A stretch of DNA of 64,000 nt from a virus (taxonomy: Duplodnaviria > Caudoviricetes), in IMG/VR virus record IMGVR_UViG_3300044678_002325, positions 1 through 64,000 of that record, one strand, 5' to 3'. The position numbers and the translations under genes are program-made. Each line of letters begins with the position of its first letter. Position 1 is the first letter of the stretch. Below the pieces are notes generated by a model, which was not told where the DNA came from, made no database searches, and saw only the letters and a program-made list of their open reading frames with translations. Shown one piece after another: positions 10,382-26,609 of the stretch.

Positions 10382-10404
10382 AATTTCTTTTTTTAAAATG
10401 TTAG

Positions 10405-10487
10405 TACCCAAGGTGGGAGTCGAACCCACAAGTCATTATGACGATTGATCCTAAATCAATTGCGTTTGCCAATTCCGCCACTCAGGC
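10405..10487 (-). tRNA. tRNA-Leu(UAG)
   Basis: Cloverleaf; ATTGA-TTTAGGA-TCAAT; long variable arm. Confidence 0.92.
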
Positions 10488-10724
10488 ATAAATAAATCTT
10501 TTATCTGGGAACTTCCGTATGACTGTCAAAATAGTCGGAGGTAAGTAAGATTTTACTTTACAACATACATACCAGTTTTCTCTATGTATGTTTTTTTTAA
10601 AGGTTAAATCCAAATTTGATTAGATAAACCAATCCTAATACAATAAGTCCAAGCATTGCTGTTGAAAACATATACATTGCAAATTCTTTTTGTTTTTCTG
10701 TTTTACCTTGATTTTCATTTTTCA

Positions 10725-10964
10725 TTATAAAAATTTTTGATAGTCTATAAAATTTTTTTCAATCCACATTTTTCCAGTTACTTCATTATCTTCTTTTTTA
10801 CTTTTTTCATAAATTTCAGACATTACATATCTTTCATTTTGTAACTCATCCCAAAGATAAGAAATAACTATGTTTAATTTTCTTTTTTCCTCTGTCTCAT
10901 GTTTAGCTTCTCTAGCAAGTTTTTCAACTCTGTCTATAACATTTTGAAGGGGTGTGTTTTTCAT
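10725..10964 (-). CDS. Hypothetical protein
   Basis: ORF track, start MKNTPL. Confidence 0.6.
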   Translation of the reverse strand: MKNTPLQNVIDRVEKLAREAKHETEEKRKLNIVISYLWDELQNERYVMSEIYEKSKKEDNEVTGKMWIEKNFIDYQKFL

Positions 10965-10965
10965 A

Positions 10966-11151
10966 TTAATCATTTTTTTTATCATTATCAAGTTCTAACT
11001 GACTTTCACTAAATATATGTAACATACCATTATCAATTAATTCTGCAACAATTCTTGTTTCACCAGATGTGGTTTGGAATACCGCAACAACTATACCTGG
11101 GAATTTGTAACCTTTCGGTTTGTAAACTTTGTCTCCTACTTTAAATTTCAT
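10966..11151 (-). CDS. Small SH3/KOW-like protein
   Basis: MKFKVGDKV...GIVVAVF...FSESQLEL. Confidence 0.6.
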   Translation of the reverse strand: MKFKVGDKVYKPKGYKFPGIVVAVFQTTSGETRIVAELIDNGMLHIFSESQLELDNDKKND

Positions 11152-11177
11152 AATTTTTTTTTAAATAATATAATGAT

Positions 11178-11561
11178 TTATTTGTAAGATGAAAAATATT
11201 TTTCAGTGTAATGTTTTAGAATACCATCACTGTTGGTGTATTTGGTATTAATTGTATTACTGAAGAAAAAACTATTATCATCCAATATAAGCAAGTGTTC
11301 GTCTCTAATGGACTCAAAATTTGTTAATCCATCTGTGTTGAATTGATTAACACGACTTTTAAAATTCTCCAATTTTTCTTTAATACAATTTAAATCAATA
11401 TTTGGAAAAAGATATGTTAATCGTGTCAATGAATTTGGATAGATGAATTGTAGTTTTGAATCTTCTTTAAGAAAGATTAAAATACCAACATTTACTTGTT
11501 CATCCAATACCACTGAAGGTCGGAATTTTAATAAACTATATTCTGCGTTTTTGAAGGTCGT
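11178..11561 (-). CDS. DUF3037-like protein (start uncertain)
   Basis: YSLLKFRPSVVLDEQVNVGIL motif extends upstream of the GTG; no ATG, in-frame ACG at 11561. Confidence 0.55.
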   Translation of the reverse strand, partial: TTFKNAEYSLLKFRPSVVLDEQVNVGILIFLKEDSKLQFIYPNSLTRLTYLFPNIDLNCIKEKLENFKSRVNQFNTDGLTNFESIRDEHLLILDDNSFFFSNTINTKYTNSDGILKHYTEKYFSSYK

Positions 11562-11625
11562 TAGATTTTAATTTAAGTTATCAATTTACATAGAAATAGA
11601 ACTCTTGTACTTCTTTAAAATTTAG

Positions 11626-11698
11626 TACACCCAACAGGATTCGAACCTGTAACCTATTGCTTAGAAGGCAATTGCTCTTCCAGTTGAGCTATGGGTGC
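11626..11698 (-). tRNA. tRNA-Arg(UCU)
   Basis: ATTGC-CTTCTAA-GCAAT; canonical cloverleaf. Confidence 0.95.
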
Positions 11699-11710
11699 TA
11701 ATATATATTG

Positions 11711-11824
11711 TAGTCAAGATAGGATTTGAACCTATACGACCCTTCACATTTCTGTTGCATCGGTCTTTCTTATGGGACAAACGTACACCATCTTACTTAG
11801 CGTCTTCCATTCCGCCACTTGACC
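11711..11824 (-). ncRNA. tRNA-like RNA with expanded anticodon region
   Basis: GGTCAAG/CTTGACT-A acceptor, D arm and T arm intact; ~60-nt non-canonical insert. Confidence 0.75.
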
Positions 11825-11926
11825 ATATTAATTAAAACATCTTGTTCAGGGTAGGTAGGAGCCCGTTACCTTTAATCTGAACCTCTTTGCCATCATTTTC
11901 TTTACGAGTTGATGTTTTAAATGTTG

Positions 11927-11996
11927 TAGTCCTGACAGGATTCGAACCCGCACAATGATTTTTTTCTCAAGCGTTTTCCAATTTCGCCACAGGACT
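11927..11996 (-). ncRNA. tRNA-like RNA (AGTCCTG family), shrunken anticodon arm
   Basis: AGTCCTG/CAGGACT-A acceptor, D arm, TTCGAAT T loop; anticodon arm TGA-GAAAAAAA-TCA. Confidence 0.75.
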
Positions 11997-12005
11997 ATTG
12001 TCTCA

Positions 12006-12037
12006 CAAAATTACGATTTGCTTTTCTAATTTCCAAA
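12006..12037 (-). promoter_or_regulatory. Bacteroidetes primary-sigma promoter
   Basis: TTTG-N20-TAATTTTG; near-identical copies at 15967 and 21754. Confidence 0.75.
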
Positions 12038-12104
12038 TCTTTTTTAAACTTTTTTTATTTTAAGATGAAAGTAATATCCCATTTTTTAGTATCTAAGTAT
12101 TTAA

Positions 12105-12371
12105 TTAAAATTCAAGTTCTTTGATTGAATAATCTGGATATCTTGTTTGGCCAAACTCATCAATCAACATTATATTTATATGAGTACAACCTTTCTTTTT
12201 GGCTGTGGTCAAATTTTCTTCAGTCAGATTAACCAAATTAACACCCCACATTTTTATCCATCCCTCATTTGGATTAAATACCTCATTGATTAGTATATCA
12301 GTTGAGTTGGGATAAGATTTCAATACCTTGTTAATACAAGTGAAGTTTTTTTCTAAAGGATTAGTTATCAT
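12105..12371 (-). CDS. Hypothetical protein
   Basis: ORF track. Confidence 0.6.
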   Translation of the reverse strand: MITNPLEKNFTCINKVLKSYPNSTDILINEVFNPNEGWIKMWGVNLVNLTEENLTTAKKKGCTHINIMLIDEFGQTRYPDYSIKELEF

Positions 12372-12411
12372 TTTGATTTTTTTTGTGTGTTAATATTCAA
12401 CTTACATTACT

Positions 12412-12442
12412 ATAAACCTTTTTACCTATCATTTAGTTCCAA
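12412..12442 (-). promoter_or_regulatory. ECF-sigma-like promoter, copy 1
   Basis: TTGGAACTAAATG-N11-GGTTTAT, three copies with identical spacing. Confidence 0.6.
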
Positions 12443-12462
12443 AGGTTAGAATTATTTTTTAA

Positions 12463-12607
12463 TAGTCCTGACAGGATTCGAACCTGTATTTACAACAACG
12501 CCAATCTGACACATCCGTGCCAGTAGAGGAATTGAACCTCTATATTGTAACCCCCTTTGGTCTAAGTGGATTTGCACCACAGCGTCTTTACATTCCGCCA
12601 CAAGACT
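12463..12607 (-). ncRNA. tRNA-like RNA (AGTCCTG family) with nested second T arm
   Basis: AGTCTTG/CAGGACT-A acceptor; insert contains AGAGG-TTCAATT-CCTCT and CTGGCAC-GGAT-GTGTCAG. Confidence 0.7.
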
Positions 12608-12708
12608 GAGTAAAAGAATACGCTTCTGGGGCTTCACCAGCCTTCTATATTCATGTACCTCTCAGTTAAGAGTCAGTACTGAGCTTTTTTTCTTTGCGTA
12701 TTCCTTTG

Positions 12709-12780
12709 TAGTCCTGACAGGATTCGAACCCATACTCTCTCATCCATACATGAGGCCTTTACCAATTTGGCTACAGGACT
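12709..12780 (-). ncRNA. tRNA-like RNA (AGTCCTG family), 6-nt anticodon loop
   Basis: CTCAT-GTATGG-ATGAG arm; normal acceptor, D and T arms. Confidence 0.75.
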
Positions 12781-12993
12781 AAATTCCACTTTAAATTACA
12801 AACAAAATTACGTATAACAAAATTAATCCCAACAATGCTAAATCAAAATAAATAAAAGTTTTACTAAACTTTATTTCATCTCTCATATGTTCAAGTTTTT
12901 CATTGTTGAGTTTTAATTGCTCTTGTAAAATTTGAAGTTTTGTTTCTAAATCACTCATAATTAAAATTTAAGTTTGTTAAAAAATTTATTTTG

Positions 12994-13064
12994 TAGTCCT
13001 GACAGGATTCGAACCCGCATCCCCCTCTGTTAGGATTCGTGACTTACCATTTGCCTACAAGACT
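12994..13064 (-). ncRNA. tRNA-like RNA (AGTCCTG family), aberrant anticodon arm
   Basis: AGTCTTG/CAGGACT-A acceptor and T arm; no 5-bp stem with 7-nt loop. Confidence 0.7.
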
Positions 13065-13069
13065 TAATT

Positions 13070-13342
13070 TTAATCTAAACTATCTAATCCCATACAATAT
13101 CTTATGAATCTTTGTTCACCATCTTCTGTCTTATATTTGTATTCGCCTTCATAAATTGTATAATAACCTCTGTCATCAAATGGTTCAAAACCGATATACT
13201 CAACACTTTCATCAACTATAGGACCTTCAACACCCATATATTGATTCAAAAGTAATTCAGTTTTTTCAATACTACTTGCAGTTAGAATAGGCATTCTATC
13301 GTTGCTATCCAAGATTACATAAATAAGTGTCATAATATTCAA
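13070..13342 (-). CDS. Hypothetical protein (paralog of 22241-22486)
   Basis: Shares PI..A.....LL..YMG...RFI.YCM..D.L pattern. Confidence 0.65.
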   Translation of the reverse strand: MNIMTLIYVILDSNDRMPILTASSIEKTELLLNQYMGVEGPIVDESVEYIGFEPFDDRGYYTIYEGEYKYKTEDGEQRFIRYCMGLDSLD

Positions 13343-13351
13343 AGTTTTAAA

Positions 13352-13582
13352 TTAAAAATATTTTCTCAAATAATATTCATATGTATCACGACTTGGAGCT
13401 GTGTTATTTTCATCAAGATGAAGAAACATATACCCTTTATAAGCGTTAGATTCATGTAAGATTTTCTCAAGTATAGTAATTATACCATTCTTTTCTTCCA
13501 TTGTGTAATTTGGATTCACCAATTGTTTGTTAGCGAAGTCTTTGATGTACTCAACTTGGATTGTTTTTTTCTCTTTAGCCAT
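13352..13582 (-). CDS. Hypothetical protein
   Basis: ORF track; TATCTTTG promoter element upstream. Confidence 0.6.
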   Translation of the reverse strand: MAKEKKTIQVEYIKDFANKQLVNPNYTMEEKNGIITILEKILHESNAYKGYMFLHLDENNTAPSRDTYEYYLRKYF

Positions 13583-13917
13583 TGTGATTATGTGTTTCAG
13601 TGATTAATAAGACAAAGATAGTTGTTCTTCCTGAATTATTCACTTTTTACTATGTTTTTTTTTAAAAAATTTTGGGGTATCTTCCAAGTTAGCTACACTT
13701 TTTCAATACCCCCTCATCCTGTAGAAACGGACTAGTGTTTTTTGCCTTTTGTAGAAAATGCGAGTGACTATCTCGTGTAAACCGCCAACAATCTGGTCTT
13801 GGCAACCCTGGTTATAGTGACATATTAACCATAATACGTGGTTAGGTTAACATATTAACCAAATACGGCAATTGAGGCTTGCAGACCACCCAATCTATCT
13901 ACATCAATTGGGATTTT

Positions 13918-14003
13918 TGGAGCCGTTTGTCAGATTCGAACTGACGTGTCCTAACGGAACTGGGTTACAAATCCAGTGCAATCAACCACTATGCGAAAAC
14001 GGC
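13918..14003 (-). tRNA. tRNA-Thr(UGU) with long variable arm
   Basis: CTGGA-TTTGTAA-CCCAG; encoded CCA; 14-nt variable region. Confidence 0.85.
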
Positions 14004-14009
14004 AAATAA

Positions 14010-14261
14010 TTATCTTCTTTTATAAACATAGGTTATTGTATCCCCTATTTCATATACATCACTTCTTCTTGTCATTATCAATTCATCACAATCGGTTTTA
14101 TAATTATATCTTTTACCAAATTCAATTGTGGATGGAGATTCTGTAATATACATCGTATCAATTACACACTTCTTAACAATATCACCAGGTTCTATTGTGG
14201 GGTGTTTGTTACAGGATACAAAGATAGTGATTAAAGTTGAAAACCAAAATATTTTTTTCAT
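14010..14261 (-). CDS. Lipoprotein
   Basis: IFVS-C lipobox. Confidence 0.6.
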   Translation of the reverse strand: MKKIFWFSTLITIFVSCNKHPTIEPGDIVKKCVIDTMYITESPSTIEFGKRYNYKTDCDELIMTRRSDVYEIGDTITYVYKRR

Positions 14262-14863
14262 TTTTCCATATTATTTATAACCCAAGTAGAAAATTTCTTA
14301 TGTCCAGAAGGTGCAAAGTGAATCCCATCCCAAGTATCACTATAAAACATTGTAGTGTCCATAGGAATTATTTTACAATTCTTTAATCCAGTTTTTTCTT
14401 TAACCATTAGTTTTTGAAACTCAATGTATCTTCCAACACATCTCTTGGTTGTTTCTGCGTCATACACAGTCTTTGTTGTTACTTGAGCTGGATTAAAACC
14501 CACAATTACAATAGGTTCAATTCCTCTTCTATTACAACTATCAACCATCATCTGAATGTTATTCACCGCCCCTTGTAAATCTACCATAGAAAACGCATCA
14601 TTACATCCACCATAAATGAATACCTGAGAGAAAGCTGAATCTTTTTTAAAACAAGCATTCATTGTCGTTCTCATATAATCCGTTCTAACACCACCTTTTG
14701 CTAGGTTGAGACTTTGATATCCAAAATGTTTTGAAACTTGATCCTGCCACCCACCAGGAGCACAGGTTAAACTATCACCGATATATAATACCCTACGTGG
14801 GGGTGTATATGACCAAGATGTCAATAATACAAATAATACTAAAAATACTAAAAATTTTTTCAT
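14258..14863 (-). CDS. SGNH/GDSL hydrolase, secreted
   Basis: IGDSLT, GGCND, DGIH blocks; signal peptide. Confidence 0.85.
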   Translation of the reverse strand: MKKFLVFLVLFVLLTSWSYTPPRRVLYIGDSLTCAPGGWQDQVSKHFGYQSLNLAKGGVRTDYMRTTMNACFKKDSAFSQVFIYGGCNDAFSMVDLQGAVNNIQMMVDSCNRRGIEPIVIVGFNPAQVTTKTVYDAETTKRCVGRYIEFQKLMVKEKTGLKNCKIIPMDTTMFYSDTWDGIHFAPSGHKKFSTWVINNMEK

Positions 14864-14892
14864 AAATTAAATTTAAAACAACGTTTATTTTT

Positions 14893-14969
14893 TGGTGGAG
14901 GATGTCGGCTTTGCTCCGACCACCTCTTGTGTGCAAAACAAGTGCTCTTGCTGAATGAGCTAATCCCCC
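14893..14969 (-). tRNA. tRNA-Ala(UGC), atypical T loop
   Basis: GGGGGAT/ATCCTCC with G3:U70; TTTGCAC loop; T loop AGCAAAG; CCA encoded. Confidence 0.85.
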
Positions 14970-15042
14970 TTTTTGTATTATGTAATTGTGCTTAAATTTT
15001 AGACGTAAGGAAGCTATACACCAACCGACTTACTTTCTCCTA

Positions 15043-15255
15043 TTACATAATTTTTCTCCATAATCCACCAGCCAAACATTTGAAATCATCAAAACTTGTT
15101 ACTCTGATTGGGAAATCTTCATATTTCCATCTTTTACAAGTTATATGAATTTTACCAGTTATAAAGTCTTTTGTTAAGAAGGTATATAAACCATCACGAG
15201 ACTTAATATGGATTTTATCCCCAGTTCTAAGATTTCTAAATTCAGACTGATTCAT
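15043..15255 (-). CDS. Hypothetical protein
   Basis: ORF track. Confidence 0.55.
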   Translation of the reverse strand: MNQSEFRNLRTGDKIHIKSRDGLYTFLTKDFITGKIHITCKRWKYEDFPIRVTSFDDFKCLAGGLWRKIM

Positions 15256-15271
15256 AATGAATTTTTAAATT

Positions 15272-15346
15272 TGGAGCAGTAAGCGAGACTCGAACTCGCA
15301 ACATCTTGTTTGGAAGACAAGAACTCTACCATTGAGCTATTACTGC
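15272..15346 (-). tRNA. tRNA-Gly(UCC)
   Basis: CTTGT-CTTCCAA-ACAAG; U73; CCA encoded. Confidence 0.95.
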
Positions 15347-15354
15347 AATAAGAG

Positions 15355-15440
15355 TGGGTGCCGAGGGATTCGAACCCCCAAGTTTAGCACGTGGCAACTG
15401 ATTTACAGTCAGCATCCTTCACCAATTTGGATAGACACCC
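15355..15440 (-). tRNA. tRNA-Tyr(GUA)
   Basis: GCTGA-CTGTAAA-TCAGT; long variable arm. Confidence 0.92.
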
Positions 15441-15712
15441 TTTTACAACTTACAAGTTCTACTACAAATAGAACTTAACCCAAATGGTCGACATTTCAAT
15501 CGTAAAGTTTTCAACCCGTTACACAGGTGTTCACTTATTTAAGTCCACCTAACACTAATATTATGTAGTCAGATTCCCAACCTGTTAATTTAATACCCAT
15601 TTGTAGTGCAAGTATTATAAAACTACTATATTAGACGCTACTCAACTTCCATTAGATTGCTTTAGTTCGATTATTTTACTAATCAGTTACCGCCATTAGT
15701 TAAGTTGTTTAG

Positions 15713-15787
15713 TTGCAAGAGTGGGAGTCGAACCCACATGGTACGGCTTATGAGACCGAGCTGGAACCACCTCCAGTCCATCTTGCA
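15713..15787 (-). tRNA. tRNA-Met(CAU) (possibly initiator-type)
   Basis: CGGT-CTCATAA-GCCG; atypical D arm. Confidence 0.8.
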
Positions 15788-15796
15788 ATTTGTTTG

Positions 15797-15868
15797 ACGC
15801 AAGGGTGGGAATCGAACCCACAGCTTCTAGGTTATGAGCCTAGCGGACGACCGTTGCCCTTCCTTGCA
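15797..15868 (-). tRNA. tRNA-Met(CAU)
   Basis: CTAGG-CTCATAA-CCTAG. Confidence 0.85.
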
Positions 15869-15878
15869 TAATGTTTTG

Positions 15879-15951
15879 TACACCATACGGGATTTGAACC
15901 CGTGACTCCTCCGTGAAAGGGAGGTGACTTATACCCCTTGTCGAATGGTGC
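15879..15951 (-). tRNA. tRNA-Glu(UUC)
   Basis: CCTCC-CTTTCAC-GGAGG. Confidence 0.93.
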
Positions 15952-15966
15952 GTTTTTATTGTATCA

Positions 15967-15998
15967 CAAAATTACGATTTGATTTTCTTAATTCCAAA
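15967..15998 (-). promoter_or_regulatory. Bacteroidetes primary-sigma promoter
   Basis: TTTG-N20-TAATTTTG. Confidence 0.75.
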
Positions 15999-16019
15999 TC
16001 TTTTTTAAACTTTTTTTTG

Positions 16020-16103
16020 TACCCAGGGCGGGACTCGAACCCGCACAACCTTACTGGTCACAAGATTTTAAGTCTTGCGTGGCTACCATTACACCACCTA
16101 GGC
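16020..16103 (-). tRNA. tRNA-Leu(UAA)
   Basis: CAAGA-CTTAAAA-TCTTG; long variable arm. Confidence 0.95.
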
Positions 16104-16287
16104 AAAATAAAGAGAAGTTTTGAATAAGAACTCTCCACTTCTCTTTTTGATATCTTGTATTCGTTATGGTGAATATCAAGTCACCATAATATAACTTATG
16201 TTGCCTTCGTCCGCCCTAATTGACAATAAGTAAACTCCTTAGAACGTAAGTCACATCTTAATCTCGTGACATAGATATTATTTTAAT

Positions 16288-16434
16288 TTACCACCAATGA
16301 CCAATATCAGTCATATCATCCCACCATTTTGCTACCCAAGAATCTGGATATTTTTTTATGATATAGTTACCAATAAAACCCAAAAGCATTATAAAAATAG
16401 CAAGAATAATAAAGTTTATCATAAAGTTTGTCAT
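16288..16434 (-). CDS. Small membrane protein (48 aa)
   Basis: MTNFMINFIILAIFIMLLGFIG...WW*; downstream of ECF-like promoter. Confidence 0.55.
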   Translation of the reverse strand: MTNFMINFIILAIFIMLLGFIGNYIIKKYPDSWVAKWWDDMTDIGHWW

Positions 16435-16460
16435 AATCTATTTTTTTAAGTTACATTATT

Positions 16461-16491
16461 ATAAACCAACCTTCATCTCATTTAGTTCCAA
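16461..16491 (-). promoter_or_regulatory. ECF-sigma-like promoter, copy 2
   Basis: TTGGAACTAAATG-N11-GGTTTAT. Confidence 0.6.
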
Positions 16492-16508
16492 CTTTTAAAA
16501 CTTTTTTT

Positions 16509-16583
16509 TGGCGGTACCAAGGGGAATCGAACCCCTACCATAAGAGTGACAACCTTATATTCTTGCCGTTAAACTATGGTACC
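16509..16583 (-). tRNA. tRNA-Asp(GUC)
   Basis: TAAGG-TTGTCAC-TCTTA; G73; CCA encoded. Confidence 0.93.
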
Positions 16584-16615
16584 AAATATTTTTCCCTCAA
16601 TTTCAATGAACATCA

Positions 16616-16647
16616 CAAAGATACAATTACTAATTCACATTTTCAAA
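16616..16647 (-). promoter_or_regulatory. Bacteroidetes primary-sigma promoter followed by boxA-like GTTCATTGAAAT
   Basis: TTTG-N20-TATCTTTG. Confidence 0.65.
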
Positions 16648-16654
16648 CACTCTC

Positions 16655-16690
16655 AAAAAAAAATCCATCTTTTTTTAGGAAGATGGATTT
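16655..16690 (-). terminator. Attenuator terminator of tRNA block B
   Basis: AAATCCATCTT-CCTAAAAA-AAGATGGATTT plus T run. Confidence 0.8.
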
Positions 16691-16717
16691 GATTTTATTA
16701 ACAATTAAAACCTTATA

Positions 16718-16789
16718 TCATACCATCTCCATCCGAGGATTTCTACCCTCAGCTCCAGTCGTTAAGTCCATATAGAGATTGTGTTTCAT
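16718..16789 (-). CDS. Putative leader peptide B (MKHNLYMDLTTGAEGRNPRMEMV)
   Basis: 23-codon ORF just upstream of the terminator; its 3' GGAGATGG is complementary to the terminator 5' arm CCATCTTC. Confidence 0.75.
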   Translation of the reverse strand: MKHNLYMDLTTGAEGRNPRMEMV

Positions 16790-16850
16790 TTGTGAAGTTT
16801 TTACTATTTTTTTATTAAATATAACGATATAATACAAAAGGTCAAGTTGG

Positions 16851-17168
16851 TTACAAAAATTGTGAAATAATTTGTGCTACTTTATACCCTGTGAATGCTC
16901 CTAATGCCGCTGAACCAGGTAAAACAATGAATTTACCAAAATTACTTTCATATTTCGCACGATTAACAATATAAGATATTAAGATATAATATAAGAAAAA
17001 ATTAATCAATACGGCAAGATCAATTTCTTTGGCCATAAACACAACTATTGAATTACCAAAGAAACCCCAACTGAAGTTAATCAATGTTTCTCTTATTAAT
17101 TCACTAACAGATGTCTTAGCATCGGCTACCTTAATTTCTTTTGTAAATATATTTTTTTTCTTTTTCAT
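16851..17168 (-). CDS. Membrane protein
   Basis: Three hydrophobic segments. Confidence 0.65.
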   Translation of the reverse strand: MKKKKNIFTKEIKVADAKTSVSELIRETLINFSWGFFGNSIVVFMAKEIDLAVLINFFLYYILISYIVNRAKYESNFGKFIVLPGSAALGAFTGYKVAQIISQFL

Positions 17169-17170
17169 AA

Positions 17171-17686
17171 CTATTCTAAAATATCCCCAAATCCGTTCTC
17201 ATCCAACCAATCCTTATCATCATTTATGTCTTTTAATTCATATTCAAACGCGAATATATTACATACAACATCGTCAGCACTTGAAAAAGTTTCGTGAATA
17301 AAATCAAAATCATCTGGTTCTAATTGAAACTTTTCTTTCTTTAAACATTTGAATAATTCCTTTGATGTTTTGAAAACATTAGGAGTTGTATAAGTTTTTA
17401 ATCTACCCTCCATTTCCATATGTTCAAATTTCTTATAGAATTTATCATTAAACACCAAGATGTTTTCAGTTCCCCATTCATTTAGAACTTGCATTATAAA
17501 TGTTTTTAACCCTTGAAAACATGCTGTACGATAGTCATCAAATTGTTGTTGAACGGAGACATCCCCAAATTCAACTTCACTTGTTTCCTTTTCGTGTTCG
17601 GCAATTTTATCCAATGCCATTAGTTGGAGTTGTTCCCATGTCGTATCATAGGGTTTATAGAAATTCACAATTACCATTGGTGTCAT
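17171..17686 (-). CDS. Hypothetical protein
   Basis: ORF track. Confidence 0.65.
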   Translation of the reverse strand: MTPMVIVNFYKPYDTTWEQLQLMALDKIAEHEKETSEVEFGDVSVQQQFDDYRTACFQGLKTFIMQVLNEWGTENILVFNDKFYKKFEHMEMEGRLKTYTTPNVFKTSKELFKCLKKEKFQLEPDDFDFIHETFSSADDVVCNIFAFEYELKDINDDKDWLDENGFGDILE

Positions 17687-17695
17687 ATTTTTTTG

Positions 17696-18079
17696 TTAAA
17701 TAAATTCATTCTTATAAGTATGAAACTCAGTATCAAATTGACTATAATCTTCAAATAATTCTTCCCCAATTTGGATATCTTTATTTGAAATTATTATTTC
17801 CCCCACAACATCTAAATTTGGATTGTAACTATGATTAATAAAGTTAGTTAAGTCACAAGAGGAATAATAAAACCCATCATCTTCCTTCCACCCATATTTT
17901 TCAAAAAATTCTTTTTGAGCTTCGTTCAATTTATTGAATGTCGTTTCATCCATTTTAATATCCACACCTTCCACGAATTCCCAAACTATAGTTCCTTTTG
18001 GGATAAATTCTTTTGTGAATAAACCTAAGTCCATTTCAGGATTAGTTGCTATTTTAACTTCTACTTTATATAAAAACAT
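17696..18079 (-). CDS. SET-domain protein
   Basis: GLFTKEFIPKGTIVWEF, FINHSYNPN, DIQIGEELFEDY. Confidence 0.88.
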   Translation of the reverse strand: MFLYKVEVKIATNPEMDLGLFTKEFIPKGTIVWEFVEGVDIKMDETTFNKLNEAQKEFFEKYGWKEDDGFYYSSCDLTNFINHSYNPNLDVVGEIIISNKDIQIGEELFEDYSQFDTEFHTYKNEFI

Positions 18080-18082
18080 ATC

Positions 18083-18715
18083 TTAATTATTATCATAAAA
18101 CATATAATCAGAATCCTCAGTTTGCCATTTCTCGAACCCCTCACAATTATAATAATCCTTATTCACCAAATAATCTGGCTTCTCAGGGAAAGATTTTGTG
18201 ACAAAGGATGGTTCTGCCCATTTTATTCTATTATTTGGTTGTAGGGCAATCTGGCCATTATTCAGTAGTATTATGTGGTGTGATTTATGTTCCATTGGAT
18301 CCTCAGCCAAAGTAAAGTCACTATTCAAATCACTAGAACCCCAATTTATTGTGGCATAATAACTTCCATCATACCATTTCTTATCTTTCATAAAGACTGA
18401 AACTTTGGTATCATAGATATAACTTAAATGATGTACCGAGAAATTGTATGAAAAACAATTCCATATTTGAAGATAATGGAATGGTAAATCAACATCAGGT
18501 GATTTGGGTTCAGTTAATAATGCGTGAGATGGAAGTTTATCTCTCATAACACCATTATTAAATAATACTTGGAATAATGCCGCTTGTCCTGGTAAACATC
18601 TAATTGAGATTATAACACCCTCAGTAAATTCACCAAATCCCTTCTTATTTTGATATAGATATTCATTTCGAACATATACCTTTAAGGGGAAAAAATTACT
18701 TTCAATATAAGCCAT
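18083..18715 (-). CDS. Conserved phage hypothetical protein
   Basis: YVRNEYL...LQIWNCFSY...EHKSHH...ALQPNNRI pattern. Confidence 0.7.
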   Translation of the reverse strand: MAYIESNFFPLKVYVRNEYLYQNKKGFGEFTEGVIISIRCLPGQAALFQVLFNNGVMRDKLPSHALLTEPKSPDVDLPFHYLQIWNCFSYNFSVHHLSYIYDTKVSVFMKDKKWYDGSYYATINWGSSDLNSDFTLAEDPMEHKSHHIILLNNGQIALQPNNRIKWAEPSFVTKSFPEKPDYLVNKDYYNCEGFEKWQTEDSDYMFYDNN

Positions 18716-18717
18716 AA

Positions 18718-19038
18718 TTAATTTGTTGGTATGTCATTTGTTCCATACTCTCTTATCAAATAGTCGGTAAAATTTTCCACACTTTCAACATTAAATTCAA
18801 TTTTATCGTGCCAAATCTTTTTTTCAATTTTTTCATACAACCACCAACCAACTAAATCCTGTATCCATCCGTATTGTTCGTCTTTTTCTTTTCTGAGGAT
18901 GGTCGGAATGGACTTCTCAAGTTGCGAAATGGTGTTGTCAAAGTCAAGTAAATCAACTCCCATAGTATAGAGCTTGTGTACCTTCTCATCTTGTTCTTTG
19001 ATTTTTGTTAATGTTTCGATTATGTAATCCCTTACCAT
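18718..19038 (-). CDS. Hypothetical protein
   Basis: Start trimmed to MVRDY (the longer ORF overlaps tRNAs). Confidence 0.6.
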   Translation of the reverse strand: MVRDYIIETLTKIKEQDEKVHKLYTMGVDLLDFDNTISQLEKSIPTILRKEKDEQYGWIQDLVGWWLYEKIEKKIWHDKIEFNVESVENFTDYLIREYGTNDIPTN

Positions 19039-19069
19039 AATAAATAGTTTTAATTGTTGATAAAATTTG

Positions 19070-19142
19070 CATAGATGGAGGGACTCGAACCCCCAACCGG
19101 CTGGTTTGGAATCAGCAACTCTACCAATTGAGCTACATCTAC
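19070..19142 (-). tRNA. tRNA-Trp(CCA)
   Basis: GCTGA-TTCCAAA-CCAGC; G73. Confidence 0.92.
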
Positions 19143-19151
19143 ATTTGTTTG

Positions 19152-19236
19152 AGGTTGGGGAGGGATTCGAACCCACGATGAATTTTCATTCGATAGTTTT
19201 GCAGACTAGTGCCTTAACCAACTCGGCCACCCAACC
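19152..19236 (-). tRNA. tRNA-Cys(GCA) with long variable arm
   Basis: TAGT-CTGCAAA-ACTA; U73; 16-nt variable region. Confidence 0.88.
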
Positions 19237-19258
19237 CTATTGTTTCTTTTTATATTAC

Positions 19259-19717
19259 CTATAACTCAATAAAGATATCATAAGTTCCATTTTCATAGTA
19301 ATTTGTTGAACAATTTCTTAATATGATACCATCATAATTTTTTTCAATTAACATTTCTTTATATTTGTCAACCCCACCGAATTTGTATATTTCATCCATA
19401 TAAACTTGAAATGAGTCATAATCTTCATCATCTGAATTAACAACATATGGATTTTCAAATTTTATTTCTTTAGTTAAAATCTTACCCTTAGAACCTTTTA
19501 TATTTTCATATCTATCAGTATCAACAGAATAATCAATAAGTCCAGCAAACCATTTGGCCATAGTTAAATTATCTGTCCAAAATACACCCATTCCATCATC
19601 AGATACTTTACCATAGGTAGCGTTAATTCTATCTCCAATACCACGATATACTATAGTATAATTTTCAAATTCTTCTTTTAAAATTGTTTTAATACGTATT
19701 CTTAAATCTTTCATCAT
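19259..19717 (-). CDS. Putative ADP-ribosyltransferase-fold (ART-PolyVal-like) protein
   Basis: VYRG...GVFWTDN...A.WFA...NPYV...YDGII pattern; N-terminal IKTILKEE motif. Confidence 0.55.
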   Translation of the reverse strand: MMKDLRIRIKTILKEEFENYTIVYRGIGDRINATYGKVSDDGMGVFWTDNLTMAKWFAGLIDYSVDTDRYENIKGSKGKILTKEIKFENPYVVNSDDEDYDSFQVYMDEIYKFGGVDKYKEMLIEKNYDGIILRNCSTNYYENGTYDIFIEL

Positions 19718-19953
19718 TTTTTTACTATAAATATATTAAATCCCCCAACTTCACCCCACTCGTCAGTGGGGGATAGGTTGAGTTAAGCTTCCTAACTTAT
19801 ACCTTGGGCTATTCGTTTACAAGCAACAAGACCACAGTAGTGAGCAGTTCTTATGGGATGCCTCGTGGTACTATTATAACATAAAGAACAATTACCTACT
19901 AGCACCTCACACCGAAATTGTAGGCAGGCTCGGTCCCTTAATTGTTCAAATCT

Positions 19954-20202
19954 TTATTTCACGATTGTCTGTATTCCCAAATCTTTGGGGTGTTTTCCAC
20001 TTAGTTTATGAGTCACAGACCCATCACAAGTTGTAAAATACTTGTATCCTTTATCCCAAAATCGATAGACCTTACATCCATCAACTTTAAATAGAAGCTC
20101 AACGTTATAATTCGCATTATCTGTTTTTAGTTCTTCTATACCTTCTCTTTGACAACTAAGGAATAATACAGAAATTAATCCAAGGAATAATATTTTTTTC
20201 AT
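19954..20202 (-). CDS. Lipoprotein (DUF4884-like)
   Basis: LFLS-C lipobox; VELLFKVDGCKVYRFWD. Confidence 0.7.
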   Translation of the reverse strand: MKKILFLGLISVLFLSCQREGIEELKTDNANYNVELLFKVDGCKVYRFWDKGYKYFTTCDGSVTHKLSGKHPKDLGIQTIVK

Positions 20203-20231
20203 CGTTTTTGTAATTTAAAAATTATTTAATG

Positions 20232-20316
20232 TGTCCTTACCTAGATTCGAACTAGGATTATACTTCTCGTCTCCACTTTGTAAGAGTGGGATGTTTAACC
20301 ATTACACCATAAGGAC
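20232..20316 (-). tRNA. tRNA-Val(UAC) with long variable region
   Basis: CCACT-CTTACAA-AGTGG; 16-nt variable region. Confidence 0.85.
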
Positions 20317-20513
20317 TATTTATAAAAGAATGATTGGGCTATACTGATAATTGTACTCCAATAGAACCGAGACCGCGTATCTTAGTTACCTTTCCTAGTT
20401 TACAGTCAAAGTCCTGAACTTTCGTACCATCCTTAATTTTTATTTTCAGACCCATAATGTCAAAAAATATGTCTACTATTTTCTAATAACACCTTTCGTA
20501 ACTTATTGTGTTG

Positions 20514-20588
20514 TGACCCTGGGGAGATTTGAACTCCCGCTCCCAATATTAAAAGTATTGTGCTTTAAACCAGCTAAGCTACAGGGTC
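20514..20588 (-). tRNA. tRNA-Lys(UUU)
   Basis: CAATA-CTTTTAA-TATTG. Confidence 0.93.
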
Positions 20589-20801
20589 ATTTGTTATTTT
20601 TTTAAGTGAGTTACATCTACATAACACATTGAAGTAATGAATTGGTTCTATATGGTAGTTATTTTTTTCATCCAAATAAATCACCACTTCCATATCCACA
20701 ATTGCTCTAATTTCGATGTGTTTATTGTTTGGATTATCTTCACTATAATCAATAAACAACTTATCACCAACCTTAAATTCACCAATTTTTACATTAACCA
20801 T
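20574..20801 (-). CDS. Hypothetical protein
   Basis: ORF between tRNAs; 3' end overlaps tRNA-Lys. Confidence 0.5.
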   Translation of the reverse strand: MVNVKIGEFKVGDKLFIDYSEDNPNNKHIEIRAIVDMEVVIYLDEKNNYHIEPIHYFNVLCRCNSLKKITNDPVA

Positions 20802-20817
20802 AATTTATTAAAATTTG

Positions 20818-20891
20818 CGTCCCAGGTAGGATTCGAACCTACGATCACTCGATTAACAGTCGAGAGCTCTAAACCACTGAGCTACTGAGAC
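20818..20891 (-). tRNA. tRNA-Asn(GUU)
   Basis: CTCGA-CTGTTAA-TCGAG; G73. Confidence 0.95.
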
Positions 20892-20899
20892 ATTTGTTG

Positions 20900-20974
20900 T
20901 TGTCCTGGTGAGGCTCGAACTCACGACTTTTCGCGTATCAGACGAATACTCTAAACCAACTGAGTTACAGGACA
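20900..20974 (-). tRNA. tRNA-Ile(GAU)
   Basis: TTCGT-CTGATAC-GCGAA. Confidence 0.92.
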
Positions 20975-20989
20975 TTGTTAAAATTGTTG

Positions 20990-21063
20990 TGGTTCCACTA
21001 GGACTTGAACCTAGAACCTACCGATTATGAGTCGGGTGCTCTAACCAATTGAGCTATAGAACC
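20990..21063 (-). tRNA. tRNA-CAU, probably Ile2 (lysidine)
   Basis: CCGA-CTCATAA-TCGG; body resembles ileX-type tRNAs. Confidence 0.8.
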
Positions 21064-21076
21064 TTTAAAAATCTTG

Positions 21077-21148
21077 TATAGGTGACTGGGATTGAACCAG
21101 CGACCACTAGTTCCCAAAACTAGCACTCTACCTCTGAGCTACACCTAT
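21077..21148 (-). tRNA. tRNA-Pro(UGG)
   Basis: CTAGT-TTTGGGA-ACTAG. Confidence 0.92.
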
Positions 21149-21308
21149 ATTATTAAACCATATATAAATCCAAACAAAAGAACAATTAGAAATATAATTC
21201 CAACTATAAACAAGTCTGAGTTCTTTGTTTTGTAAGACAAAATTAAGAATAAGATTCCAATTATCAAAAATAAAAGACCAATAATTACTAACATTTTTTA
21301 ATTTTTTG

Positions 21309-21402
21309 TAGTCCTGACAGGATTCGAACCCGTAACGTACATCTCATATCTTTGATGCAAGCACTTGATAATAGCTGCGTCTACCAATTCCGCCACAGGA
21401 CT
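21309..21402 (-). ncRNA. tRNA-like RNA (AGTCCTG family)
   Basis: Perfect acceptor, D and T arms; irregular anticodon arm plus extra hairpin. Confidence 0.75.
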
Positions 21403-21614
21403 ATATTTAACTTATCTAAAATTTTCTCATATTTACAAAACAACAATCCAACTTTTTAGGTCTATCTATGTCATCTCTACCGTCAATTCTTGATTTTATA
21501 TAGTCAAAGATTTCTTTTTGTTCATCAGCGTTTAAACTATTGTTGATAGTTTCAATTCTAATCTCAAATCTTACCCAATAATGTGTGTCCATAATTTTAG
21601 TTTTTAATTTTTAG

Positions 21615-21744
21615 TAGTCCTGACAAGATTCGAACTTGTATTAAGCTACATATTGTTTATGTTAGACCTTTCGCTCCAATCCTAGTATTAAGGAGTGTCT
21701 GAACATTCAATCTTCACTCTACCCTTAACTTTCGCCACAGGACT
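21615..21744 (-). ncRNA. tRNA-like RNA (AGTCCTG family), 130 nt
   Basis: AGTCCTG/CAGGACT-A acceptor and ACAAG-TTCGAAT-CTTGT T arm enclosing a long irregular hairpin. Confidence 0.7.
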
Positions 21745-21753
21745 ATTGTATCA

Positions 21754-21785
21754 CAAAATTACGATTTCATTTTCTAATTTCCAAA
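21754..21785 (-). promoter_or_regulatory. Bacteroidetes primary-sigma promoter
   Basis: TTTG-N20-TAATTTTG directly upstream of a tRNA-like RNA. Confidence 0.75.
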
Positions 21786-21898
21786 CACTTTGGAATATTT
21801 TTCTTCATTTAATATGATTAGGTGGGTCGCTCATCTCCACTGTCTGCATTCCTTTGAGTTATGAACTCAACTGCTCTAATCTTATTAATATTTTTCTG

Positions 21899-21985
21899 CG
21901 GAGGACAGAGGACACGAACCCCACACCATACTTGGTGCCACTCGCTTAGCAGGCGGTGGTAACGACCCTGATTACTTTATCCTCC
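21899..21985 (-). tRNA. tRNA-Ser(GCU)
   Basis: CGC-CTGCTAA-GCG; long variable arm; G73. Confidence 0.85.
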
Positions 21986-21990
21986 AATTG

Positions 21991-22143
21991 TTAAATCCTT
22001 TTTCTTGAATTTTCTAAAATTGTTATTCCTAATAGAATTATACCAAGTACAATAAGTGTGTTAGGTGTACCTATTAATTTTGGAAGGGGCAAAAGAATAC
22101 TAAGCACAAAACCGAAAATCAAGATGAACAATAAATTTCTCAT
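21991..22143 (-). CDS. Small two-TM protein (50 aa)
   Basis: MRNLLFILIFGFVLSILLP...; downstream of ECF-like promoter. Confidence 0.55.
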   Translation of the reverse strand: MRNLLFILIFGFVLSILLPLPKLIGTPNTLIVLGIILLGITILENSRKRI

Positions 22144-22179
22144 TTTTTTAAACTTTTAATTGTTTCTAAATTCATTTAC

Positions 22180-22210
22180 ATAAACCCCTTCCCTTACCAT
22201 TTAGTTCCAA
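22180..22210 (-). promoter_or_regulatory. ECF-sigma-like promoter, copy 3
   Basis: TTGGAACTAAATG-N11-GGTTTAT. Confidence 0.6.
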
Positions 22211-22240
22211 GATTTAATTTTTTTTTGTGGTATCTAAGTT

Positions 22241-22486
22241 TTAAATTAATTCATCTGTCGGCATACAATACATAATGAATCGGTGTGAACCATACTCATT
22301 TTCGTAATAATAACTTCCTTGATTTACCTCATCATTATTGGGTTCAAACATTATGTATTTAGAAGTGGGGTCAACACCAATTCCCATATATTTGTCTAAT
22401 AATTCCAACACTCTTTGAAGGGTTGTTGCGGAACAAATAGGTATCCCCCATTTTTCGTGAACAATAAAATACATTGTATTTTTCAT
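22241..22486 (-). CDS. Hypothetical protein (paralog of 13070-13342)
   Basis: Shared motif pattern. Confidence 0.65.
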   Translation of the reverse strand: MKNTMYFIVHEKWGIPICSATTLQRVLELLDKYMGIGVDPTSKYIMFEPNNDEVNQGSYYYENEYGSHRFIMYCMPTDELI

Positions 22487-22509
22487 ATTTGTTATTTTAA
22501 ATTTTTTTG

Positions 22510-22582
22510 TAGTCCCAGCCCGATTTGAACGGGCATCTTATCATCCGTAGTGATAGATTCTAATCCATTGAACTATGGGACT
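22510..22582 (-). tRNA. tRNA-Arg(ACG)
   Basis: TATCA-CTACGGA-TGATA; acceptor AGTCCCA/TGGGACT. Confidence 0.9.
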
Positions 22583-22592
22583 AAATTTGTTG

Positions 22593-22679
22593 CGGAAAGT
22601 TGAGGTGTCGATCCCCATACAATACAATTGTACCTATCGTTTTCAAGACGTAGACCCAGGCCGCTGAGCTTAACTTTCC
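22593..22679 (-). tRNA. tRNA-Ser(UGA)
   Basis: CGT-CTTGAAA-ACG; long variable arm; G73. Confidence 0.85.
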
Positions 22680-22742
22680 AATTTATTTTTTTAATGTAAT
22701 TAGACTTTATTATTTAAATGATATTTATAGTAAAACAAATTT

Positions 22743-23006
22743 ATGAAAAAGATAGTAAGATTAACAGAATCAGATTTAATTAGACTGGTTAAAAGAGTAA
22801 TTAATGAAGACAACTTGAAAGAGTTTGGTTCACGTAAAGATTATGAACATGAAAAAAGCTGGAATACCAAATCTCCAAAAGTATACGATACTCAAAACCC
22901 AGAACAAGATGATGACACTAAAACAATTATGGATTACATTAAAAAATTATTCGGATTAGGTTTAAAACCTAAAGAAATTAGAAAAAAATTAAAAGAATTG
23001 GAATAA
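22743..23006 (+). CDS. MKKIVRLTESDL-motif protein
   Basis: N-terminal repeat-family peptide; TATTTATA upstream. Confidence 0.75.
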   Translation: MKKIVRLTESDLIRLVKRVINEDNLKEFGSRKDYEHEKSWNTKSPKVYDTQNPEQDDDTKTIMDYIKKLFGLGLKPKEIRKKLKELE

Positions 23007-23018
23007 TCTTTATTTAAG

Positions 23019-23091
23019 TAGGTATGATGAGAATCGAACTCACTAAACCAACATCCACAATGTTGTCCCTCTCCATTTGGGTTCATACCTC
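23019..23091 (-). tRNA. tRNA-His(GUG)
   Basis: CAACA-TTGTGGA-TGTTG; encoded G-1, A73. Confidence 0.88.
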
Positions 23092-25202: not shown

Positions 25203-26609
25203 TTAAACTTCTATCATCTTGTATCTTTCGGACTCAATGGTTTCGGTCATAATTAATATTGGTGATAGTTCTTTTCCACCAAGAATTGACTTCAAGATTG
25301 ATGGACTAAAACCAGATATTAACGCTGTACCACTTTCATCAAAACGAACAGGGAAGTTATCTCCTCTCGATTGTATGTTCCAAAAGATAATACCAGGTAG
25401 TTGATATCCACTATTCTCATATTCTTCACGAATCATTTGAATTGCGGAATTATTACGACCAGTTGCTTGATTAAATTCCATATCTGATAAGATAAGGATT
25501 TTAGTCGGCATCTCACTTTGAGGTACATTGTGTTTAATTGATTGGTTTAGAATCAATTTGAACACAGACTCCAAGTTTGTACTCATACCCCAATCGGCAG
25601 CACGTAGTTGTGTGTATCTATCATATAGATTACCACTCAACTTTTGTAATTGTGGTCTCTCAGAGAATGTTATGAAAGAGTCTTTAAAAGAACCTTCATT
25701 TCTTTCTGAAATATACAATCCCAATGATACTGCAACATCCATACAAGTTAGATTATTGTTTTTTCCTGCAGAACCACTAACCATTGAACCTGATACATCA
25801 ACTACTGGTAAAATTCTTTCAGTACTTCCTTCCATAAAGTTGGGGAGAGCTTTCCATTGTTCTATTGCCAAATCTTTGACACCTTGTTCCAAAGTTTTAA
25901 CAACATCATATGGATATACAGCCCCAGCATTTACTTTGGTCTCACCTTTTTTCAATGATTCCAAGTATTCTCCAAAACCAGTTAAATTGTGTTTAGAGAA
26001 TGCTTTGGTGTATCGAGCCATAGCCAAAGATGGTACTTTTGAGTATTCAATATTTGTCCACTCGTTAGCACACATCTTTTGCTCGACCGTTTTGGAAAGA
26101 ACAACCAAAGTTTTACGTAATGATTTTGGTGTAAGACCCATAACCTTCCTGATTGAGTTAAAAATAACTCCTTTTCTTGGCATCCACTTTGCACATAGTC
26201 CATTTTTGGCTTCTAAACCTTGTACTATTGTGTCAATCGCATCGTCATTCACTTTTGTGTTGAATAGGACTGTAAGATCGTCCCAACGACCGAATTCAGG
26301 GATGAATTTAATATTCTTTGCCAATACTTTTGGGGCCACCTCTGCTAAGAGTTGGATTATATCACGGAATATTTGTCTTTCACCAGCACCACCACGAACA
26401 TCTCTTGCCCAAAATAATATACGCAATGCAGTTTTAGGACTCTCAATGAAAGCCTTTGAGAATAGACTTAACAATCTTTCTTTGTCTTGTCCTCTCATTG
26501 CTCCAATGGTGAAGAATAGATTCACACACTCGTTAAGAGTTGATGAATTTGTAACCATACCATTTTCAGTTAAGGTATCTTCTGTCTGTAATGCGTCTAA
26601 GAAGTTCAT
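25203..26609 (-). CDS. Ro60/TROVE-like protein with C-terminal vWA domain (DUF2828 family)
   Basis: TENG, ARDVRGGAGER, FGRWDDL, AKWMPR; vWA MIDAS VDVSGSM, ILSDMEF, IFWN. Confidence 0.85.
   Translation of the reverse strand: MNFLDALQTEDTLTENGMVTNSSTLNECVNLFFTIGAMRGQDKERLLSLFSKAFIESPKTALRILFWARDVRGGAGERQIFRDIIQLLAEVAPKVLAKNIKFIPEFGRWDDLTVLFNTKVNDDAIDTIVQGLEAKNGLCAKWMPRKGVIFNSIRKVMGLTPKSLRKTLVVLSKTVEQKMCANEWTNIEYSKVPSLAMARYTKAFSKHNLTGFGEYLESLKKGETKVNAGAVYPYDVVKTLEQGVKDLAIEQWKALPNFMEGSTERILPVVDVSGSMVSGSAGKNNNLTCMDVAVSLGLYISERNEGSFKDSFITFSERPQLQKLSGNLYDRYTQLRAADWGMSTNLESVFKLILNQSIKHNVPQSEMPTKILILSDMEFNQATGRNNSAIQMIREEYENSGYQLPGIIFWNIQSRGDNFPVRFDESGTALISGFSPSILKSILGGKELSPILIMTETIESERYKMIEV

Follow-up and report, generated by a model that had tools for sequence, protein, structure and literature searches.

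What are RNA-like elements that keep the acceptor stem and T arm of a tRNA, but in which the anticodon arm gives way to a sequence that varies from copy to copy: tRNA genes in decay, or RNAs maintained for a use of their own? Seven such elements lie in a 64,000-nt stretch of phage DNA (Duplodnaviria; Caudoviricetes), hereafter the window, which is the first 64 kb of the 78,750-b IMG/VR virus record IMGVR_UViG_3300044678_002325 (CheckV completeness 27%; GC content of the phage ~29%). They are set in a minus-strand tRNA array with 26 tRNA calls by ARAGORN, plus a transfer-messenger RNA (tmRNA). We found that the scaffold of these elements is conserved and covarying, that their boundaries are exact and that their middle parts turn over; related elements are present in many other phage contigs. 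Judged from these patterns of change, the family is real, widespread and under selection.

All seven copies are present where the original prediction had placed them, on the minus strand and inside the tRNA array, with lengths of 70–145 nt (Table 1). The 21-mer GTTCGAATCCTGTCAGGACTA has six matches at ≤1 mismatch in the window and none in 100 shuffles; its degenerate form recovers 7/7 copies and no other site in the 78,750-b record. Common to all seven are a 7-bp acceptor stem with the discriminator A73 and a T arm with a GTTCRAAT loop. The acceptor of six copies reads AGUC(C/U)UG paired to CAGGACU; that of the 114-nt element reads GGUCAAG/CUUGACU, with compensatory changes at pairs 5:68 and 6:67 relative to the other six. 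The likeness of the acceptor to those of the phage's own tRNA-Ile(GAT) and tRNA-Arg(ACG), pointed out earlier, is correct; the T arm of the elements is identical to that of tRNA-Arg(TCT) of the window, and the D arm most often found in them differs by two changes from that of the window's tRNA-Leu(TAG). The D arms, which had been described as mostly intact, have a GG-bearing D loop in 5/7 copies; the 145-nt element has none, and the 130-nt element is ambiguous.

No copy has a 5-bp anticodon stem with a 7-nt loop (0/7), as had been predicted; the nearest are the elements at 12709 (5 bp and a 6-nt loop) and 12463 (4 bp and a 7-nt loop). The gathering cut-off of the Rfam tRNA model (RF00005) is reached by 6/7 copies, at 29.8–43.7 bits, with the 130-nt element missed; canonical tRNAs of the window score 49–74 bits with this model. 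ARAGORN called two of the seven, one with a 2-base ‘anticodon’ and the other as Asp(atc); these calls fit chance, because scaffolds with shuffled middles were called in 8/113 cases. Folding z-scores of the seven whole elements range from −0.7 to −3.1.

Orthologs in related records were informative for four of the elements. The 114-nt element differs from its orthologs (G006, G010, G018) at 0–1 of 114 positions. The G006 ortholog of the 71-nt element has compensated T-stem changes, and the orthologs of the 130-nt element (G002, G010, G018) carry a compensated T-stem change of A52:U62 to G:C. Those of the 145-nt element, in the same three records, were read by ARAGORN as tRNA-Leu(caa) by way of the inner T arm.

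Beyond the window, the exact 22-mer was found in 54 stretches of viral contigs, and the degenerate motif in at least 116 stretches of viral contigs and at least 120 of metagenome contigs. Among the matches listed, the pooled loci include 257 sites whose 7-bp acceptor pairs fully; in another 29 such a stem is lacking or a contig end cuts the site. The distinct elements among these matches number 162, with a median length of ~100 nt. The middles of these 162 elements fall into 127 clusters, mostly singletons. ARAGORN found no tRNA in 116 of the 162; among its calls on the others are a coherent set of 16 tRNA-Ile(UAU) whose variable arm is long, together with small numbers of Ile(GAU) and Arg tRNAs. 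In a species-genome collection (185,579 genomes) the 21-mer was found on one contig, which belongs to a metagenome-assembled genome (MAG) and is as long as a viral contig; thus, the elements are not a copied host tRNA. In three near-complete phage genomes, G004 (85 kb, 92%), G012 (41 kb, 95%) and G016 (46 kb, 100%), non-decoding elements are the sole RF00005 matches. The sequencing runs containing the phage sequence were 20 DNA runs, all lake-water metagenomes, with no RNA run among them. A 32-nt probe was covered to ≥80% by 24 records of cultured phages; a member of the family was seen among them only in Lactobacillus phage LpeD, in the Ile(UAU) form.

This widespread tRNA-Ile(UAU) form measures 90–92 nt and scores ~61 bits. 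Its acceptor and T arm are those of the family, its variable arm is long, and its 4-bp anticodon stem covaries (L025 1504–1594, L055 264–354, L258 1436–1527 in LpeD, and 13 or more other variants). It lacks annotation in LpeD. It may be the ancestor of the scaffold. Two elements, of 175 nt (L066) and 168 nt (L095), have an extra GC-rich hairpin inside the D loop besides the variable middle. Outside the family, Vibrio phage 1.012.O carries an unannotated RNA-like element (L256 1443–1527) with an identical T arm within a 14-bp terminal stem.

Evidence on selection was counted only in columns free of the search pattern, in 113 non-tRNA elements. In these columns the T stem covaries: pair 50:64 is C:G in 91 elements, U:A in 15, U:G in six and an unpaired A-A in one, and pair 52:62 is G:C in 105 and A:U in eight. 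G-U wobble occurs and A-C never does, which points to an RNA of the element strand rather than to a DNA palindrome. U8 is present in 105/113 elements and U48 in 99/113. A D stem is at the canonical place in 91/113, with GG in the loop of 81 of these 91, and the D arm is of the Leu type, like that of tRNA-Leu(TAG), in 53/113 by a strict pattern and in 92/162 by a loose one. The nucleotide after A73 is C in 100/119 elements (CAA in 50, CUA in 26, CCA in two); this 3′ context is like that of real tRNAs, C74 being found in 23/24 canonical tRNAs of the window. One copy (L039 3489–3593) has a D loop without GG and an interrupted T loop; it corresponds to a 105-nt element of a sister phage and is followed, 120 nt downstream, by an intact 110-nt element. 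A decayed copy next to an intact one indicates that the scaffold decays once it is free of selection.

The 94-nt element of the window is identical at 92/94 positions to one in the unrelated phage record G001 (L008); the homology runs from base 1 to base 73/74, and the flanks are unalignable. Likewise, the window's 70-nt element occurs in two unrelated contigs (L016 and L012) with unrelated flanks. Five close relatives (87–99% nucleotide identity) have kept the order of canonical tRNAs, and their element sets differ at three hot spots. At a syntenic site in small phages, lysins 96% identical stand next to middles that are unrelated (58% global identity); in a second pair the values are 87% for the lysins and 44% for the middles. 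In some elements an identical middle is paired with different D arms. Contigs from lake metagenomes show a joint at which 246 b between two identical 22-mers are left out; this joint was seen in 2/4 runs, with sides of 93 and 21 letters (short-sided joints may derive from other genomes, and only joints of mapped contigs were used). Together, the hot-spot differences, the exact-ended homology, the swapped middles and the 246-b joint indicate that middles are exchanged by recombination through the constant arms. The suggestion that the constant arms reflect selection rather than decay is thus supported by covariation in free columns, by the conservation of U8, U48 and C74, by element-exact homology and by stand-alone copies in small near-complete phages.

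Two copies had been proposed to sit directly behind their own promoters. A conserved block of ~41 nt does abut the copies that end at 11996 and 21744; a sigma-70 scan calls no promoter there. In three relatives a family element lies between the third copy of the block and tRNA-Glu. As the block heads both elements and the tRNA-Glu operon, the elements are first genes of tRNA operons.

We tentatively explain the elements as non-decoding tRNA-shaped RNAs in which the constant top half would be a scaffold and the hypervariable middle, exchanged by recombination, would be the part that gives specificity; the chance of this explanation being right is, in our estimate, a little short of even. Among three functions originally put forward (decoys for defence toxins, RNase P/Z processing scaffolds with cargo, and ligands of a Ro60-like protein), the processing scaffold with cargo fits best. 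The constant part consists of the 7-bp acceptor starting with AGUC, A73, C74 and the T arm, to which in most cases U8, U48 and a D arm of the Leu type are added. This top half would be a substrate of tRNA maturation: RNase P would cut the 5′ side, and the 3′ side would be trimmed and completed to CCA. The product would be a stable L-shaped RNA, excised from tRNA-operon or mRNA transcripts, that acts as a docking scaffold. The middle (~15–110 nt, in place of anticodon and variable arms) would be a specificity module binding a host or phage factor. The constant arms would also offer homology handles, by which recombination swaps, adds and deletes whole middles within and between phage genomes; recombination of this kind would lead close relatives to carry different element sets. 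From sequence we infer expression, processing, CCA addition and a working role of the middle.

The Leu-type D arm, U48 and A73 (the last fixed by the search pattern) also raise the possibility that the elements could be charged by leucyl-tRNA synthetase (LeuRS); LeuRS is not known to read the anticodon. One could go further and suppose that freshwater phages keep an ‘RNA cassette system’, in which the fixed top half is both a scaffold for maturation and stability and a handle for recombination, so that a hypervariable stock of small structured RNA modules can be gathered, exchanged and dropped, each module neutralising or hijacking a different host factor. Such a system would parallel, at the level of RNA, anti-defence gene islands or integron cassettes, with an arms race as its driving force. 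We regard this extension as doubtful.

Table 1. Coordinates of the tRNA-shaped elements and of associated features in the 64,000-nt window
Feature	Position	Strand	Evidence or remark
tRNA-shaped element, 114 nt	11711..11824	−	Rfam 33.6 bits; minimum-free-energy fold gives acceptor, D and T arms
tRNA-shaped element, 70 nt; middle is a 3-bp stub with A-rich loop	11927..11996	−	Rfam 41.1 bits
Conserved promoter-like block, 5′ of the 70-nt element	11997..12037	−	3 copies in record, all in the array
tRNA-shaped element, 145 nt; anticodon-like hairpin (4 bp, 7-nt loop) and extra T-arm-like hairpin	12463..12607	−	Rfam 29.8 bits
tRNA-shaped element, 72 nt; 5-bp stem with 6-nt loop replacing the anticodon arm	12709..12780	−	Rfam 43.7 bits
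tRNA-shaped element, 71 nt; acceptor wobble pair U5-G68	12994..13064	−	Rfam 37.5 bits
Third copy of promoter-like block, before tRNA-Glu with 6-nt leader	15958..15998	−	In three relatives an element stands between it and tRNA-Glu
tRNA-shaped element, 94 nt; Leu-type D arm	21309..21402	−	Rfam 38.6 bits
tRNA-shaped element, 130 nt; aberrant D region, long middle	21615..21744	−	21-mer with 1 mismatch; no Rfam match
Conserved promoter-like block, 5′ of the 130-nt element	21745..21785	−	Not called by sigma-70 scan
Ro60 homolog, DUF2828 and DUF7788	25203..26609	−	Pfam; AlphaFold2 (AF2) model with predicted local distance difference test (pLDDT) 70.9; Foldseek

Two further observations concern the array itself. 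The spacer at 12608–12708 (minus strand), between the 72-nt and 145-nt elements, contains two more hairpins and no open reading frame (ORF). In the canonical tRNAs of the array (10404–24593), C74 is present in 23/24 and a full CCA in only five, with trailers CAA in 11 and CUA in three; these trailers suggest a lineage-specific route of 3′-end maturation.

What can be said of the middles themselves? At 39.1%, their GC content exceeds both the 33.5% of the locus and the 31.3% of the 60 nt upstream (p ~1e-8). Words enriched in them are GAAAG and CGAAAG, of the GNRA type, and an extra T-loop word GGUUCG, also enriched, is present in 8/100. Between window copies and syntenic orthologs, 0/79, 1/63 and 1/43 positions of the middles differ, and alignable intergenic DNA of the same arrays is 94–97% identical; the lower rate of change in the middles is suggestive, in a comparison that is not rigorous. 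Within clusters, changed positions amount to 55/1081 in middles and 36/465 in the D-arm region, a comparison biased by the way clusters are made. The proteins recurrent next to elements are a small unknown protein (21 loci), an SPL-like radical-SAM protein (15), a glucosaminidase (15) and another unknown protein (12); of these four, the glucosaminidase alone is related to a protein of the window's record.

A number of observations weigh against the explanation by scaffold and specificity module. The search pattern itself makes positions 53–73 invariant, and pairing of the acceptor was a criterion of inclusion. The folding-energy z-score of middles (mean −0.76, n = 82) is the same as that of upstream flanks (−0.81; Mann–Whitney p = 0.71), so thermodynamics does not mark the middles as specially structured. 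Compensated pairs inside middles are few, and covariation there comes to 1–3 pairs in alignments of 2–3 sequences. Rfam searches gave no known RNA family in the middles, in the window at E ≤ 1 and in 20 further loci at E ≤ 0.5; no group I or other ribozyme match was seen in these elements. No antisense target of the middles rose above chance in the 78.7-kb record; the sole antisense match, a 15-mer such as appeared in 1/100 shuffles, is a T-arm-like palindrome. Clustering of neighbours showed no protein that constantly adjoins the elements across lineages, the synteny being lineage-specific only. Finally, if the −10 box of the promoter-like block is the abutting TACAAT, transcription would start inside the acceptor strand.

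Some of these facts would suit scaffold-only decoys or sponges, with the constant acceptor, T arm and elbow trapping a host enzyme (a defence toxin acting on the acceptor end, or an enzyme modifying or degrading tRNA) and the middle free to vary. Such decoys would be expected to have the top half alone constant, as it is across the 162 distinct elements among the matches listed, several copies per genome, and middles that folding energy does not separate from flanks; the phage also has genes of the RNA-repair type (RNA ligase, Ro60). Still, we consider decoys unlikely: whole middles are kept at ~98% identity between genomes with unalignable flanks, they are GC-richer than their surroundings and they differ less within clusters than the D-arm region (with the bias mentioned above); neutral filler need not span 15–110 nt nor be replaced wholesale at a syntenic site, and stoichiometric trapping of an enzyme would probably be inefficient. 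Could the elements be merely punctuation, that is, RNase P/Z cleavage signals in polycistronic transcripts, e.g. before lysin genes or tRNA operons? In several small phages an element does lie between a small ORF and a same-strand lysin gene, ending ~25 nt before the start codon, and in the jumbo lineage an element stands directly behind the operon-heading block. However, cleavage signals need neither a variable middle nor a conserved D-arm elbow, five elements are stacked over 1.4 kb inside the window, where there are few genes between which to cut, and element-exact transfer between genomes is not expected of a cis signal; we find this quite improbable. To about the same degree we disbelieve that the elements are decaying tRNA paralogs, or selfish DNA repeats homogenised by gene conversion, with no function as RNA. 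Pseudo-tRNAs are common in phage tRNA arrays (e.g. those annotated in Pseudomonas phage psageK4), a plainly decayed copy was found (L039) and the constant arms do recombine; yet the window has no canonical tRNA with the same acceptor as a donor for conversion, stem changes are compensated, G-U occurs without A-C, and U48 and C74 are conserved outside helices. Moreover, the elements are the sole tRNA-like genes of near-complete phages of 41–85 kb, and they are absent from the species genomes but for the one MAG contig.

Two other explanations would tie the elements to known RNAs. They might decode after all, as tRNAs whose anticodon arms are unusual or whose genes contain introns, since the same acceptor and T arm are present in genuine-looking Ile(UAU) tRNAs (16 distinct, ~61 bits), Ile(GAU) and Arg(ACG) among the matches listed. 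With introns allowed, ARAGORN called 65/116 elements, compared with 67/113 for shuffled middles, and the anticodons it reported were scattered; with a call rate no higher than that of the shuffled control, intron-bearing tRNAs were rejected as a candidate, and removal of the inserts as introns does not restore canonical tRNAs more often than chance. As no window copy has the 5-bp stem and 7-nt loop either, decoding seems to us hardly credible. The remaining explanation, that the elements act, if only in the jumbo-phage lineage to which the window belongs, as Y-RNA-like partners of the phage's Ro60 homolog, we also hold to be very improbable, if less so than decoding. The Ro60-like protein is itself real: the 468-aa DUF2828/DUF7788 protein matches Ro60 structures over its full length, the top Foldseek matches of its model being Ro60 of Thermus phage phiLo (9kop/9l5y, E 4e-10), Xenopus Ro (1yvr) and Deinococcus Rsr (2nvo). 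The Pfam TROVE model has no match in the record, and phmmer with this homolog against PDB sequences gave nothing below E 0.2. The homolog stands at the head of the array, and phage Ro60 proteins are reported to bind phage-encoded Y-like RNAs (PMC12135203). Nevertheless, the nearest element is ~3.5 kb away from the gene, and an Rfam search around the gene gave no known-RNA or Y-RNA-like match at E ≤ 10. A homolog was found in 4/21 motif-carrying records searched, and in 0/4 of those with ≥90% completeness; the count covers these 21 records, with four further records outside it. The Ro-binding motif of YrlA RNAs, GNCGAAN0-1G (described in PMC4201824), is present in 2/100 middles, with a null mean of 2.0, and in 0/7 window copies; the topology is not permuted as in YrlA. 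Therefore, of the original interpretation, selection on the elements holds, and Ro60 binding as a general explanation does not.

With respect to its neighbourhood, the Ro60 homolog has >7,900 relatives in databases, many of them on contigs of 140–295 kb. The minus strand of the window also codes for an RNA ligase of the DRB0094 family (5881–6906; TIGR02306, 214 bits) and a small HD-domain protein (8904–9494) that weakly matches the SpoT/RelA hydrolase region. Together with Ro60 and a phage tmRNA on the plus strand (2466–2847; Rfam, 76 bits; missed by ARAGORN) these genes make up an RNA-repair and translation island by the array. A tmRNA is present on a second, unrelated contig as well (L102 2481–2885), ~400 nt from a family member. 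Further along the window is a full-length Hsp70/DnaK homolog (39506–41365, minus strand, 851 bits). A CCA-adding enzyme (PF01743) was found in 0/5 related partial records.

Returning to the explanation by a constant scaffold with exchangeable middles, we may ask what it would add. Phage tRNA genes are usually taken to help with codon usage or to replace tRNAs that host defences have cut. The family would represent a third use of the tRNA shape, a conserved top half with near-unlimited middles, in hundreds of uncultured phage contigs. If the middles work as modules, they would form a large untapped natural set of RNAs binding or regulating host or phage factors. For annotation, the loci of the elements are now missed, or called pseudo or odd tRNAs.

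How do the elements compare with systems already described? We saw no description of the family in the literature searched; the tRNA-like candidates of PMC10690425 and the supplements of PMC4201824 may bear on its novelty. The former, an IMG/VR survey, names five tRNA-like candidate RNAs, any of which may correspond to the family. Pseudo-tRNAs of the psageK4 type are, like the elements, weak matches to tRNA models without a usable anticodon; compared with these and with the IMG/VR candidates, the family keeps the top half exactly in hundreds of contigs in which the middles are unrelated.

The YrlA-type Y RNAs share with the elements the lack of decoding, a D arm, a T arm, an acceptor-like stem and a 15:48 pair. 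At least one YrlA-type RNA is reported to be cut by RNase P and to receive CCA (PMC4201824), and phages too encode RNAs of this type (PMC12135203). However, in YrlA the tRNA-like domain is permuted, so that the RNA ends in a Ro-binding stem and its ‘acceptor’ is a closed hairpin, while it is the ends of the elements that form the acceptor; YrlA carries GNCGAAN0-1G and adjoins Ro60, while in the elements the motif is at chance level and most carriers are without Ro60. Identity with YrlA or other Y RNAs was rejected after the Ro-binding motif, linkage to Ro60 and permuted topology had each been looked for and not found. The tmRNA has the same order of parts as the elements: 5′ acceptor strand, D-like region, a large insert replacing the anticodon arm, T arm and 3′ acceptor strand. 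It differs by the G3:U70 alanine identity, pseudoknots and a tag reading frame, and in size, the elements being 70–175 nt long. Identity with tmRNA was rejected as well: pair 3:70 is U:A in 113/113 elements, the elements have no RF00023 match, and a tag frame was judged by eye. Since the features of YrlA and tmRNA that were looked for are lacking, we assigned the family to neither.

Closer in genomic setting are RNAC and RNAD of phage T4 (species 1 and 2), which like the elements are small RNAs encoded inside a phage tRNA cluster. They are described as stable RNAs of 139 and 119 nt with a function still open (PMC3014915, PMC9697503). The rnaC gene has a T-arm-like hairpin at its end; no sequence likeness to the elements was seen, no 7-bp acceptor pairing was visible by eye in rnaC, and the only Rfam match of the rnaC locus is to tRNA-Sec, at 17.5 bits. 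To our knowledge, no hypervariable multi-copy family of T4 RNAC/RNAD has been described. The present family may help with the 50-year-old question of their role.

The same layout as in the elements is found in the engineered tRNA scaffold, a laboratory design in which a cargo takes the place of the anticodon arm, and processing and stability in bacteria come from the top half of the tRNA. The literature searched contained no natural hypervariable phage counterpart of it; if the middles work as modules, the family would be a natural precedent for this trick of RNA engineering. Taken with the other comparisons, its sequences suggest that the family represents undescribed tRNA-scaffolded small RNAs of lake-water phages.

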